Assembly (NCBI GenBank): GCA_045805065.1
Contig: JBJMMA010000159.1
Span: forward strand, 1-21,335
Direction of reading: 5' to 3'
Length of the DNA: 21,335 nucleotides
From: Bdellovibrionia bacterium
GTDB taxonomy: Bacteria > Bdellovibrionota > UBA1018
A program made the position numbers and the translations under genes. Below the pieces are notes generated by a model. It was given only the letters and a program-made list of their open reading frames with translations. It was not told the origin of the DNA and ran no database searches. Shown here piece by piece: positions 7,023 through 10,746 of this stretch. How positions within the stretch are numbered: position 1 is the stretch's first letter; the number at the start of each line of letters is the position of its first letter.

Positions 7023-8786
7023 TTACTTCGCTGCCTTAGGGTTCACGCAAGCACCTTCTGCTTCGCGAAGAGCTTTGTCTTCTTCAGCAGCAGCTGCCTT
7101 CATGCAGGCCGCGCCTTTGCACTTGCCTTCAGCTTCGAGGCGTTGTGCAACGCGAGGATGAGCGTCCAAGAGGACGTCTTCCACTTGAGCCAAGTCTTCA
7201 CCCTTCAAGCTTCCGGATTGTTCCATCCGATCGAGGTCTTTTCTCAGCGCGAGGTTGATCTCGCGAGCTGCCATGACTTCGGGGCTGGTCAGGTTTGCAC
7301 CCAAGTTCGTGCGATAATCTGCGCTCTTTGCAGCCAGGGTCTCAAGGCCGTCAGCAAACTTCTTAGGATCCTTGGACTTCATCATGAGACGAGCCAGGCC
7401 TTCTTTTGCAGACTTGGTCTTGGAGACAAGAGCCTTAGCAATCGTTGGAGCTGCCTTACCGACAACTGCACCACCTGCCAAGAAACCACCTTGCATCAAG
7501 GCAGTGTTTCTCACCCAGTGATCCGCAGCTTCTTGAGCTTCAGCGTATTGCTTAGCATCAACGACATCTTCTTCCTTACCTTTTTCGACACCGATCTTAG
7601 CCACTTGCTTGAAGGTATCTTCAGCCTTGGCTTGGACCTTTTGGTAATCGTTATAGGTCATCGCTGCGCCAACCCATCCGCCGGAGGCCATGGATGCTAA
7701 CGAAAGCATCTTGCCCGCGCCCGTGAGCTTGGTTGCAGCGCCTGCACCTGCGCCAGTGACGGCGAAGGCAGCAAAGCTTGCGCCCATCTTTTCCCACTCA
7801 AGCTTATGCATCCACTGAGTTGCAGCAATTGCAGCACCGCAATCTTGTGGGTTCTTGGCGAGATACTTTTCCATCTCAGGAGTGAGCGTTGCGTAGTACA
7901 TCAAGTCACGCTCATTCTTGTCAAAGGTTGGCATCATGTCGCGAGTGCTGAACGCTGGGAACGTCACCGTGCCCTTGGCGATCGCCTTCTCGGTCACATC
8001 TTTTTCATGCTGTGCATCTTGAATCAGACGATCGATCGTCTTTGACCACTCGCCATTGGACCATTCAGGAGATCCGTTTGCGGAAGCCCCGCTTGGCTTT
8101 GGCAAGTAGGCTACAAGGTACAAACCGTTCTTTTGGATCCCGTTAGAAAGGGTGCTCGCATAGTCTGCCTTTGCAGCAGCTTCGATTTCCTTTTCCTTGG
8201 CGCCGTTTCTAGCAACGCCGTCGTTATAAACTTCGAATTCGGATTTTTGAAGATTGCCCGTCACTGCTTCAGGGAAAGCATTTGGAATGAACGGAAGCTT
8301 GGAGCTGGTGAATGGCTTGAGCTCCGAGCTGATTTGATGCTTTCCGTCTTTGCTGGAAAGATTGGAGCGAGCCAGATTCTTTCTCAAGTCGCCGACGAAT
8401 GCACCGTACTGACCCTTGATCTCATCAACCTTCTTCTTACAGTCAGCCGATGGGCTTGAGCTCTCGAAGCACTTCTTGGTTTCAACCCAGTACTTCGTTC
8501 TCTTATCGAGATCTTTCAGATACTGATCTTTAGCAACGTCGCCGAGCATCGCGCCGATCTTTGCAGCTTCCAAGGAGCTGCTGAGATTCGCGCCAATTTT
8601 TGGAGTCGCGACTTCGACGGCAGCAGCGCAGCCCTTGGCTTCAAGAGCTTTCTTCTCTGCGTCCGTCTTGACGATCCTGACGTTCTTACAAGCTTGAAAA
8701 GGGACCGCGTCCTCAGCCATTGCTGGAGCGAGAGGGCTTGCAGCCATCACCGCGGTCATCGTGATCCATCCGAGATTTTTCTTCAT
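7023..8786 (-). CDS. Large secreted hypothetical protein with paired Cys and internal Gly/Ala-rich hydrophobic segments
   Basis: SD GGAGA; signal peptide MKKNLGWITMTAVMAASPLAPAMA; 587-aa ORF. Confidence 0.88.
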   Translation of the reverse strand: MKKNLGWITMTAVMAASPLAPAMAEDAVPFQACKNVRIVKTDAEKKALEAKGCAAAVEVATPKIGANLSSSLEAAKIGAMLGDVAKDQYLKDLDKRTKYWVETKKCFESSSPSADCKKKVDEIKGQYGAFVGDLRKNLARSNLSSKDGKHQISSELKPFTSSKLPFIPNAFPEAVTGNLQKSEFEVYNDGVARNGAKEKEIEAAAKADYASTLSNGIQKNGLYLVAYLPKPSGASANGSPEWSNGEWSKTIDRLIQDAQHEKDVTEKAIAKGTVTFPAFSTRDMMPTFDKNERDLMYYATLTPEMEKYLAKNPQDCGAAIAATQWMHKLEWEKMGASFAAFAVTGAGAGAATKLTGAGKMLSLASMASGGWVGAAMTYNDYQKVQAKAEDTFKQVAKIGVEKGKEEDVVDAKQYAEAQEAADHWVRNTALMQGGFLAGGAVVGKAAPTIAKALVSKTKSAKEGLARLMMKSKDPKKFADGLETLAAKSADYRTNLGANLTSPEVMAAREINLALRKDLDRMEQSGSLKGEDLAQVEDVLLDAHPRVAQRLEAEGKCKGAACMKAAAAEEDKALREAEGACVNPKAAK

Positions 8787-8964: not shown

Positions 8965-9052
8965 TCCCCCCCGCTAAGCTTGCTGAACAAAACGGATCTT
9001 CGGCTCTCTTATGAAGGTGAGAAAACATCCCATTTTGATTAAATTGAAATTA

Positions 9053-9631
9053 ATGAATCGCCGCCTCCTGAAACTGATTTTTTTCTCCATCGCTCTCCAT
9101 GCAGCGATCTTTGCGGCGTTCACTGTGTCACTCAGGACCCAGAGAATGGACATGCCTTCACCAGGTGAGAGCCACATCGGTCCTCTAGCCATCGAAGTGG
9201 GTGGTGAGCCCAAGACTGAGGCGCCATCTCATCCTGCTTCAAAACAGCTTTCTTCCCAGCAAGCCGTGACCACAAACTCCTCGGCAGAATCTGCCCATCC
9301 GGAAAGCGGAGCCAGCCGCGGCTCAAACTCAGGCCCCGTCGCCATCAATTCATCTGATCCTTATTACTCAGAAATCCGCGCCAGAATCGAATCCCACATC
9401 CACTACCCCCCAGCCTTCGCCCGCCGAAGACTTCAAGGCCAAGTGCAAGTCACCCTCACCCTGCTTTCCAATGGATCCATCTCATCATTAGATGTCGCCC
9501 ACTCCAGCGGCACCTCCGAACTCGATCAACTCGCCCTCGACTCCGTCCGAGCCGCATCCCCCTTCCCAACTTTCGAATCCACCTCCCCAGCCCGCAAACT
9601 CGAACTCCCGATCACCTTCCGCCTCCGCTAA
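9053..9631 (+). CDS. Energy transducer TonB family protein (TM anchor, Ser/Pro linker, TonB C-terminal domain)
   Basis: SIALHAAIF (SxxxH TM motif), YPPAFARRRLQGQV, HSSGTSELDQLAL, AASPFP, LPITF. Start is 9053 or 9011. Confidence 0.88.
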   Translation: MNRRLLKLIFFSIALHAAIFAAFTVSLRTQRMDMPSPGESHIGPLAIEVGGEPKTEAPSHPASKQLSSQQAVTTNSSAESAHPESGASRGSNSGPVAINSSDPYYSEIRARIESHIHYPPAFARRRLQGQVQVTLTLLSNGSISSLDVAHSSGTSELDQLALDSVRAASPFPTFESTSPARKLELPITFRLR

Positions 9632-9869
9632 CCAAAAGGTGGTCGCCTCCTTTTTGTAGCGCACCTGCAGCAAAGTCCGATTTCCGAACAAATCAAAACG
9701 CGTTTGGAACTGAGATAAAAAGCCTCGCTGTGACATCCTGTCACACTTCCCAGACGGCATCCTGCCTGGAAGGGCTCGGTTTTTATCTCAGTTCCAAACG
9801 CGTTTTGATTTGGCCGGAGATCGAATGATAACGCGCCATCGCTACAAAAAGGAGGCGACCACCTTTTGG
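9632..9869. repeat. 238-bp nested inverted-repeat element (REPIN/MITE-like or structured RNA)
   Basis: 9632-9661 is the exact reverse complement of 9840-9869 (30 bp), and 9689-9721 of 9780-9812 (33 bp). Both intervening spacers are 27 nt; the 58-nt core holds two small hairpins. Confidence 0.95.
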
Positions 9870-9885
9870 CACCTTTTGGGTAAAT

Positions 9886-9974
9886 TTTGCCTCTCGAGAT
9901 CGTGCTCTGAACCTCCGATCAGAAAGATGCAGCGGGAATGGATTATCCCGCTCGCGAGTTCGCACGGAGGCAAA
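9886..9974 (+). promoter_or_regulatory. Putative multibranch 5' leader sequestering the lipoprotein SD
   Basis: Helices TTTGCCTC/GAGGCAAA, CGTGC/GCACG, TCTGA/TCAGA and AGCGGGA/TCCCGCT. Confidence 0.5.
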
Positions 9975-9978
9975 GACT

Positions 9979-10746
9979 ATGAGTAAAACTATCGAACACA
10001 ATTGGCGCAATTGGATGATGTGGGTTCTTTCCGGGATGATTCTCATCACGGTCAGCGGTTGCCGCTTCGGAAATCACGTCGACACGGGAGCCTCTCAAGA
10101 CATCGGGGCATCCGGCTACTACTCCACTCGCCCCACCTCTTATACTGTCACCACGACTCAAACAACGGGTGGAAACCATGTTCTCAACATGAGCGTGACT
10201 TCAGTTCCCACCATTATAAGCAATTACTTTACTGACCCGACAACCTTGGTGATGCTGGACTCGGCCACCGGAAGATACGCAGTCTTCCCACCGACCTCGG
10301 GCAACCCGACTTCCTACCAGGACATTTACCTTGCGGCCAACGGCAAGTCCTTTGGCATCAGCGAAGAGATGGGATGGGAACAGGCTTGGACTGACCCTGC
10401 CTGCCAGATCAATACGAGCTACGAAATCAGCGGTAACTTGAGTGCCTTGGGCGCGAGCGATCCGAAAACGATGTCCACTTCCCTGGGCCGCATTCCGCTC
10501 ACAGGCCGACTTTCATTGAGAGCCACTTACAAAACAAGCTTTCAGGGGAATTGTACGGCGAGTTGGCAAGCGATGGCTGATTGCTATCAGACTCTCACGT
10601 CCTGCCCGGGCGCAACCGCCGGCGATCAGGTTCAAGCCCAGAAAGTGGCGCAATCCACCTACGACTTCTGGGTCCAGGTCGGCGCTCTTTCTCTCAGTGA
10701 GATTGCGACAACCCATGAACTTCGCTTTGACGTAAGCTACCAATAG
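9979..10746 (+). CDS. Hypothetical lipoprotein
   Basis: SD GGAGG; hydrophobic leader ending in lipobox VSG-C; Thr/Ser-rich with four further Cys. Confidence 0.82.
   Translation: MSKTIEHNWRNWMMWVLSGMILITVSGCRFGNHVDTGASQDIGASGYYSTRPTSYTVTTTQTTGGNHVLNMSVTSVPTIISNYFTDPTTLVMLDSATGRYAVFPPTSGNPTSYQDIYLAANGKSFGISEEMGWEQAWTDPACQINTSYEISGNLSALGASDPKTMSTSLGRIPLTGRLSLRATYKTSFQGNCTASWQAMADCYQTLTSCPGATAGDQVQAQKVAQSTYDFWVQVGALSLSEIATTHELRFDVSYQ

Follow-up and report, generated by a model that had tools for sequence, protein, structure and literature searches.

A probable REPIN-type repeat with a second repeat family as its spacer, and its candidate RAYT, in a Bdellovibrionia genome

The contig JBJMMA010000159.1 of the Bdellovibrionia bacterium assembly GCA_045805065.1 was analyzed over positions 1 to 21,335 of the forward strand, and this whole stretch of 21,335 nucleotides is referred to here as the window. 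At positions 9632-9869, the window contains a 238-bp element that begins on the first base after the stop codon of a TonB-family gene and consists of two inverted units, in which perfectly complementary arms stand beside blocks of 16 nt that are unrelated to each other. What kind of element keeps its arms perfect next to an equally long block that has fully diverged? The initial annotation, which was made from the letters alone, proposed a repeat moved in trans by a transposase, an RNA with a functional bubble, or an invertible DNA segment. Our analysis indicates that the element is very probably a non-autonomous repeat of the REPIN type (repetitive extragenic palindromic [REP] doublet forming a hairpin) that is built of two modules, and that its cognate REP-associated tyrosine transposase (RAYT) is encoded elsewhere in the genome, on contig C111. 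The system is REPIN-RAYT in kind but non-canonical in form, and it is neither a new RNA nor a switch.

Two-module organization and copies of the element

The two halves of the element pair with each other over most of their length, as the initial annotation described. The outer arms (9632-9661 and 9840-9869), which were found by a repeat search, are 30 nt long and 100% complementary, and the inner arms (9678-9721 and 9780-9823) are 44 nt long, separated by 58 nt, and 93% complementary with three mismatches, whereas the 16-nt block at 9662-9677 agrees with the reverse complement of its counterpart at 9824-9839 at 4 of 16 positions. The predicted RNA fold is one long rod of -151.8 kcal/mol (z = -14.9), and the predicted DNA fold has -96.4 kcal/mol (z = -16.0); in both cases, none of 200 shuffled sequences was as stable. 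The rod with a bubble of 16 by 16 nt is thus confirmed, yet the bubble is a trait of all 15 full-length copies in the genome and does not distinguish the copy in the window.

From left to right on the plus strand, the element comprises a left REP (arm A; 9632-9661), which is an imperfect A-tract/T-tract hairpin followed by GTAGCG; a left linker (9662-9687) that includes the 16-nt block; the left arm of an inner hairpin module (9688-9721), the outer end of which is GAACAAATC... and which pairs with 9780-9813; a conserved core of 58 nt (9722-9779) with two small hairpins that have ATCCT loops on the plus strand; the right arm of the inner module (9780-9813), assigned from complementarity and the fold; a right linker (9814-9839); and an inverted arm A on the minus strand (9840-9869), assigned from complementarity and a hidden Markov model (HMM) of arm A.

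The element is a member of a multicopy family. A whole-element nhmmer search of the window's own assembly (G000; 262 contigs, 94% complete) gives 36 non-overlapping loci, 15 of which are full length and cover at least 225 of the 238 positions. Separate HMMs of the parts count 47 hits of arm A (E ≤ 0.01), one of which is the left arm of the window copy, and 36 hits of the core; the arm-A hits all lie outside long open reading frames (ORFs) or at ORF ends. Six hits are located at contig ends, so the true copy numbers are probably higher. The 15 full-length copies are composites with the layout of the window copy, 238-248 bp long and the same in segment order and spacing. Approximately 16 further cores have no arm A, and each of these lies within its own near-perfect stem of 25-55 bp with the ends GAGCAAATC.../...GATTTGTTC. 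A few copies of arm A are solitary, and one short doublet of arm A is present in G000. With these counts, the possibility that the element occurs only once, which had been considered at the outset, no longer applies.

Alignment of the copies, a check proposed in the initial annotation, separates conserved from variable segments. Over 91 pairs of 14 composites (the copy on C249 was omitted here and from the RNAalifold analysis because it is cut by a contig end), the mean pairwise identity is 0.93 for the left and 0.84 for the right arm A, 0.84 for the core, 0.59-0.72 for the inner stems, and 0.51 and 0.48 for the two linkers, which is the lowest of all segments. The 16-nt block varies, therefore, while the arms are conserved. 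Arm A folds as an imperfect hairpin of 30 nt, CCAAAAGGTGG-TCG-CCTCCTTTT, in which a T.T mismatch is conserved; GTAGCG, five free bases, and a GCGTCA box follow. Being a short imperfect palindrome repeated in extragenic DNA, it has the properties by which a REP is recognized. The REPIN is described in passages of PMC3116915 as an inverted REP doublet with a spacer that forms a hairpin in which compensatory changes are common, and inverted doublets that fold with their spacer into one hairpin are observed here in the 15 composites and in the short doublet.

An assembly fold-back artefact, which the initial annotation had allowed for, is ruled out, as there are 15 copies in G000 and further, orthologous ones in another genome of the same genus (G001; 490 contigs, 95% complete), the gene DNA of which is approximately 72-84% identical to that of G000. 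A family of protein-independent terminators, with copies of the arm arising separately, is unlikely given the 93% identity across 30 nt. The arms were also considered as inverted copies of the neighboring coding flank; none were seen, and the stems start past the stop codons. Arm A had initially been called terminator-like, but in a consensus scan of positions 9000-10500, no terminator and no promoter is called within the element, and arm A has its T-run inside the stem and not unpaired behind it as in an intrinsic terminator. In the scanned stretch, the only terminator-like call, at 9952-9931 of the minus strand, falls between the element and the downstream gene.

The family accounts for contig breaks and for many of the "perfect palindromes" in these metagenome-assembled genomes. 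The ends of contigs C262 and C171, for example, are neighbors in G000 that are broken at an arm-A repeat: locus L008 of G001 aligns with C262:5966-7556 and then with C171:48753-47346.

A RAYT gene flanked by arm A

REPIN-RAYT systems are well known in Gammaproteobacteria, and the named systems include the REPINs of Pseudomonas fluorescens SBW25 and the REPtrons and bacterial interspersed mosaic elements (BIMEs) with TnpA-REP of Escherichia coli, Stenotrophomonas, and Marinomonas. The initial annotation noted that the window contains no cognate enzyme, which is right; the RAYT lies on C111. Y1 transposase genes were first sought with Pfam PF01797 (Y1_Tnp) and then by tblastn with the proteins found, and the latter search locates a 218-aa ORF at G000:C111:8413-9069 on the minus strand, the product of which is 54% identical to the Y1 protein of C152. 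On the coding strand, the order is the TAA of the upstream gene, arm A in forward orientation, a GCGTCA box, approximately 50 nt, TGACGC, arm A in reverse orientation, and, directly after it, the ATG of the RAYT gene; past the RAYT stop codon come TAACGC, five bases, and arm A in reverse orientation again. The copies of arm A around the gene are at 9189-9162, 9067-9090, and 8333-8357, and the gene with its flanking REPs has the organization of a REPtron. The only PDB match of the protein is the E. coli TnpA-REP (4ER8, E = 2.5e-6), with the HUH and Y-x-x-x-N-P motifs both aligned. In a large protein collection, the protein has 407 relatives at E ≤ 1e-5, many of which are named "REP element-mobilizing transposase RayT" by JGI. 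Both the multicopy family and this gene support the early proposal of a REPIN-like element that is moved in trans by an HUH/RAYT enzyme.

The nine RAYT loci listed, from G000, G002, G008, and G009, are all flanked by A-tract/T-tract hairpins, the sequence of which differs by locus. Most of these loci have a GCGTCA-like box at 9-10 nt from the hairpin foot, and the box is kept across RAYTs that are 46-65% identical. At several loci, the RAYT stop codon is the TGA within ATGACGCA. Three RAYT paralogs in G000 (on C111, C34, and C152; 55-61% identical) each lie beside a different hairpin family: the gene at G000:C152:9984-10742 (L003/L038) has a family of the CCCAAAGGTCGGGACGACCTTT type with approximately 10 copies, and the gene at C34:40743-41396 (L001/L035) has a family of the AAAAAGGTATGCCATACCTTTTT type in tandem with approximately 5 copies. 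According to passages of PMC6006769, several tnpA-REP genes may be present in one genome, and each of them has a REP family to itself. The small families of the C34 and C152 genes, which have members elsewhere in G000, match this published rule of one REP family per gene.

The RAYT gene on C152 adjoins a tRNA gene. G000 also contains four paralogs of approximately 200 aa with a Y1_Tnp domain (on C251, C243, C226, and C143; L002 and L004-L006), which are 43-74% mutually identical; no flanking repeat was found at these genes, and no link to arm A or to the core. An assignment of the core as the end of an IS200/IS605 insertion sequence, similar to the palindrome-associated transposable elements (PATEs), was dropped, as no TnpB/Cas12f-like domain was found in the 94% complete G000.

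By analogy with TnpA-REP and the IS200/IS605 transposases, the RAYT would bind the folded single-stranded REP and would cut and rejoin the DNA at a short site whose distance from the hairpin foot is constant. We infer from its conservation that the GCGTCA box is the best candidate for taking part in the choice of this cleavage site. Cutting and rejoining of this kind would spread or maintain the REP doublet.

Linkers and the inner hairpin module

The linker that joins the REP to the inner hairpin begins with the 16-nt block. In 45 REP units, positions 31-35 vary freely, and positions 36-41 read GCGTCA in 25 units, GCAGCA in 7, GCGTTA in 3, and other sequences in 10. The left box of the window copy is the degenerate form GCAGCA (9667-9672), and the right box is GCGTTA on the other strand (TAACGC at 9829-9834), which is one change from GCGTCA. 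The linker is free to drift except at this box, and in all 15 composites, the two linkers of one copy match each other poorly (1-10 of 16 positions). A linker that is unconstrained but of fixed length makes the internal loop a trait of the family and not a peculiarity of the window copy. The outer arms, on the other hand, are perfect complements through their shared REP consensus and not through a need to pair with each other. The initial argument that neutral decay would not leave perfect arms beside a diverged block of equal length is sound in itself; the cause, however, is the constraint on the REP next to a free linker and not a function of the bubble.

The same data bear on the proposal of a structured non-coding RNA with a functional 16-by-16 loop, which would act as a 6S-like mimic of an open promoter or as a guide. 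The very stable rod with its symmetric internal loop would suit such an RNA, but the loop sequence is the least conserved part of the family without being hypervariable as guides are, and the size and content of the loop vary between copies. The left 16-mer of the window copy has its only other exact match in G000 at C170:3377-3392, inside a sister copy of the element (C170:3347-3584) in which the linker pair recurs. In viral or prey collections, which are far larger, an exact 16-mer would by our own rough estimate find many chance matches. A search of 9000-10500 against Rfam 15 at E ≤ 10, including 6S RNA, ribozymes, and CsrB/Rsm, gives nothing above noise (at best 17 bits versus a gathering threshold of 35, for Bacillaceae-1, E = 4.1), and no promoter-like site was called in this stretch. 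An RNA of this type is very unlikely.

The perfect 30-nt inverted repeats upstream of a gene also led to the proposal of an invertible DNA segment that controls the downstream gene. Against this, the arms are generic REPs at 47 places, and the same inverted arms recur at 15 loci irrespective of gene context, also where two genes converge; moreover, no invertase is nearby, and inversion of a near-palindrome alters only the core and the linkers. Contigs from three soil-metagenome DNA runs of one study contain a fraction of 0.19-0.26 of the words at a contig depth of approximately 2-4; none of them spans the stretch, no joints are seen, and they are uninformative on inversion, excision, and expression. 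We consider inversion to be very unlikely, and the same holds for a rarer variant, in which the minus strand is a CsrA-sponge RNA with core loops of AGGAU. Two hairpins with GGA loops on the minus strand of the core and a single csrA gene in the genome would agree with a sponge, whereas the mRNA-sense strand of the solo cores carries AUCCU and not GGA, and the GGA loops are antisense to the neighboring gene at most solo copies.

Comparison of the window copy with its relatives indicates different histories for its modules. The window copy and the sister copy at C170:3347-3584 agree at 21 of 26 positions on both linkers, in the same orientation relative to the core, and this shared asymmetric pair was thus inherited as a unit. 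The core of the window copy, in contrast, is closest to that of the C180:24899-25138 copy (56 of 58 positions), the linkers of which are unrelated (9 of 28 and 13 of 26 positions). A core nearest to C180 combined with linkers nearest to C170 points to recombination between copies. Such mosaic histories would also be expected if two REPs had been added independently around a pre-existing hairpin by a RAYT that targets hairpin feet, in which case the 238-bp composite is not a replicating unit. It is consistent with this that the inner module stands alone at approximately 16 loci and that arm A can be solitary or form a short doublet. In addition, 5 of the 44 listed arm ends have a junction of a half-arm and a full arm (AAAAGGTG, then the full arm), which suggests insertion of one REP into or next to another. 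However, all 15 composites have the same spacing and segment order within 238-248 bp, and two copies at unrelated loci share both asymmetric linkers. Independent addition is improbable in our judgment, and a REPIN that moves as one composite unit would fit these last observations.

The inner module is an independent palindrome family of approximately 130 nt, which is also found without REPs and is the spacer of nearly all REP doublets in G000. Its pairing was counted in 31 copies, with 5 of the 36 core hits omitted as partial or near a contig end. Watson-Crick pairs occupy at least 23 of the 25 positions beside the core in 29 of the 31 copies, whereas the left arm of one copy forms a mean of 12.0 pairs with the right arm of another (standard deviation 3.4, maximum 22, n = 930), and the left arms are only 41% identical between copies. 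Among the 775 cells of these inner 25 pairs, 736 are Watson-Crick, 8 are G.T, and 3 are A.C. RNAalifold with the 14 composites gives up to four pair types per stem column, and the small stems of the core covary as well (GTGAC/GTCAC versus GCGAC/GTCGC). Stems selected as RNA normally carry many G.U pairs, and template switching in quasi-palindromes is a known example of copying from arm to arm. Near-pure Watson-Crick pairing in spite of divergence points to copying between the arms at the DNA level and not to selection at the RNA level, and to judge from these sequences, such copying is probably the main way in which the stems stay complementary. Over the whole structure, G.T exceeds A.C on the sense strand of the core (53 versus 18 cells, including one invariant T.G pair), and this slight strand bias would allow for a stage in which one particular strand is single-stranded, as RNA or as DNA.

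The solo core hairpins often occur as convergent pairs at a distance of 210-340 nt, where two genes converge and each gene is followed by one of the hairpins; such pairs are located in G000 at C134:1041-1315, C134:5655-5949, C170:18418-18757, and C247:13792-14057.

Gene ends, orthologous sites, and known systems

The 3' end of a co-oriented gene lies within -12 to +60 nt of 21 of the 47 arms. In the window, the TonB-family gene is at 9011-9631 on the plus strand (TIGR01352, tonB_Cterm, E = 1.7e-15), and its TAA stop codon (9629-9631) directly abuts the element, in agreement with the initial annotation. Sixteen arm-A ends are located at -4 to +1 nt from a gene 3' end, and all 16 follow TAA, which makes up 46.9% of the stops of 3106 long ORFs in the genome background. 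At five gene ends that have no element in G001, the stop codons there are TAG, TGA, TAG, TAG, and TAA, and the C-termini are unchanged. The element may target TAA, supply the AA, or select TAA later.

The bias for TAA is also one of the observations that would fit a host RNA function, i.e., a 3'-end structure placed right after the stop codon for terminating or insulating transcription, for protecting the 3' end of the mRNA, or for slowing translation termination; REP-RAYT would then be merely the origin of the structure, and the two explanations can coexist. Solo cores lie 33-63 nt behind a stop codon and, by our own reading, are co-oriented with the upstream gene in approximately 10-11 cases versus 1. 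The core is kept at orthologous loci although the stems have diverged, and G.T exceeds A.C on the core sense strand, both over the whole structure and within the inner 25 pairs (8 versus 3). In E. coli, ribosomes stall and expression falls where a REP lies less than 16 nt from a stop codon (Liang 2015, as cited in a passage of PMC12306157), which makes an effect at the host level plausible here. The near-purely Watson-Crick stems (736 versus 8 G.T), however, argue against selection as RNA; at the locus shared by C262 and G001, the hairpin is preceded by a canonical terminator hairpin with a T-run, itself conserved, and so may lie outside the mRNA; and no terminator or promoter is called in the element itself. 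A host RNA function is therefore possible, although we regard it as rather unlikely.

The family is narrow: 6 of the 61 genomes searched have a hit, G000 included, and outside G000 both modules are found only in the same-genus G001. Comparison of orthologous sites in these two genomes shows both presence and absence of the element. The composite on C141 lies precisely between a stop codon and a 26-nt spacer, and G001 has only a 28-nt spacer there, with no HMM hit; at this clean empty site, a target-site duplication was sought and none is visible. On C180, two composites in the same orientation (24899-28297; L013/L026) bracket approximately 3.4 kb with genes of 145 and 825 aa, whereas in G001 the outer genes abut with their stop codons overlapping in CTAG, and the elements and both genes are absent; this arrangement may have arisen by insertion of genes flanked by REPINs or by a precise loss. 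At the right-hand gene end on C170, G001 again has no element. In G001, the C148 locus carries a short REP doublet in which part of the left inner arm is retained, and we take this doublet as a central deletion of an ancestral composite, which means that the composite predates the split of the two species. Solo hairpins are orthologous between C262 and L008 and between C51 and L014; their cores are conserved (approximately 4 of 60 positions differ in C262/L008, counted by eye), and their stems have diverged beyond recognition although each is still self-complementary. REPINs are reported, in two preprints, to be long persistent and vertically inherited (bioRxiv 10.1101/2022.05.22.493013 and 10.1101/2021.07.10.451892), and the persistence observed here fits this behavior.

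The locus of the window copy is not a clean empty site in G001, as an additional gene of 753 aa on the opposite strand lies between tonB and the downstream gene. The tonB ortholog of G001 has the same ...FRLR end but a TAG stop codon and no element there, and two REP-like hairpins are located upstream of the downstream gene. In the window, the element is followed by a relic half-hairpin, CACCTTTTGG (9870-9879, unstranded), which directly repeats the last 10 nt of the element; 9870-9895 aligns with ...GGTCGGGCCCACCTTTTGGTTAAGTTTTGCC of G001, and 9870-9879 is homologous to the 3' half of the second of these two hairpins, an older REP-like hairpin that G001 keeps at the orthologous site. The junction is of the kind described above, in which a half-arm adjoins a full arm. 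The downstream gene (9979-10746, plus strand) begins 110 nt past the element and encodes 255 aa; it has no NCBIfam family match, and its G001 ortholog is 72% identical in DNA.

Several observations weigh against the REPIN-RAYT assignment. The PF01797 search of G000 gives six Y1 genes, none of which is flanked by arm A, and it missed the C111 gene, the product of which scores 17.5 bits with Y1_Tnp versus a cut-off of 23. This weak score agrees with the poor coverage of TnpA-REP proteins by PF01797 that is mentioned in a passage of PMC6006769. G001 has arm-A REPs and short doublets, yet no homolog of the C111 RAYT is found there at E ≤ 1e-10; the gene may be merely unassembled in these 490 contigs at 95% completeness. 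Canonical REPs are marked by a GT[AG]G tetranucleotide 5' of the foot of their hairpin, according to passages of PMC8266576 and PMC6006769, and the former describes it as essential for the E. coli TnpA-REP and as thought to guide the choice of the CT cleavage site. In arm A, GTAG sits on the 3' side of the hairpin and CTAC on the 5' side on the other strand, and the tetranucleotide is not kept in the REPs of relatives, which keep the GCGTCA-like box instead. The full-length copies contain no near-identical pair, with 79% identity for the best match of the window copy, and thus give no sign of recent transposition, although identical copies may be hidden by the repeats at the six contig ends. 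No excision or insertion junction is seen in the metagenome reads, the contigs of which have a depth of only 2-4, and the mosaic histories of the modules are compatible both with recombination between copies and with movement of the whole unit.

The REPIN-RAYT assignment extends these systems to an Oligoflexia/Bdellovibrio-like lineage in a non-canonical form, with a second repeat family as the REPIN spacer and with orthologous copies in two species. The cognate RAYT of arm A, the conserved box, the recognition of the 238-bp unit as a REP doublet whose spacer is another repeat, and the comparisons of orthologous sites are new here; a full-text literature search, judged by title and abstract, found no work on RAYTs or REPs in Bdellovibrio-like bacteria. 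The box at 9-10 nt from the hairpin foot is a concrete candidate for how this group of RAYTs picks its cleavage site. The family is also a natural system for asking how long palindromes stay perfect while drifting and why REPs abut TAA stop codons. The inner hairpin with its conserved core may even be a class of its own, in which the arms are kept identical by copying and the core is constant, and which is carried as the cargo of the REPIN; together with the abutment to TAA, the composite would then be a mobile 3'-end cassette coupled to translation termination or to the fate of the mRNA 3' end. This is doubtful, but if it is true, the RAYT distributes a structured module to gene ends, and the composite is not mere junk.

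The element can be compared with several known types of repeats. Similar to the attC sites of integrons, which are recognized as folded single-stranded DNA, it has conserved end boxes and a variable but self-complementary middle; it differs from them in having no integrase or cassette array and in its center, which is conserved and not variable. Miniature inverted-repeat transposable elements (MITEs) of the Correia and enterobacterial repetitive intergenic consensus (ERIC) type are likewise hairpin-forming intergenic repeats of 100-250 bp at gene ends, but they have TA target duplications and DDE-type transposition, whereas there is no duplication at the clean empty site of the element, and the enzyme is a Y1 transposase. 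The mosaic elements of E. coli, BIMEs and repetitive integration host factor (IHF)-binding palindromic (RIP) elements, resemble it more closely in having two inverted REPs and a linker with a further conserved motif; the linker of RIP elements carries an IHF site of approximately 30 bp, in contrast to the palindrome of approximately 130 nt with a structured core and an independent existence that is found here. With REPIN-RAYT systems, the element shares short extragenic palindromes in many copies, inverted doublets with a hairpin-forming spacer in which changes are compensated, a Y1/HUH transposase encoded between REPs of its own family, several RAYT paralogs with a REP family each, and copies that persist at orthologous loci between species, as far as these systems are described in passages of PMC3116915, PMC6006769, and PMC8266576. 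It differs from them in that a GCGTCA/TGACGC box 9-10 nt from the foot is present and the 5' GT[AG]G is not, in that its long spacer (178 nt) belongs to another repeat family, the core of which is conserved, in that its REPs abut TAA stop codons to the base, and in its Oligoflexia/Bdellovibrio-like host.

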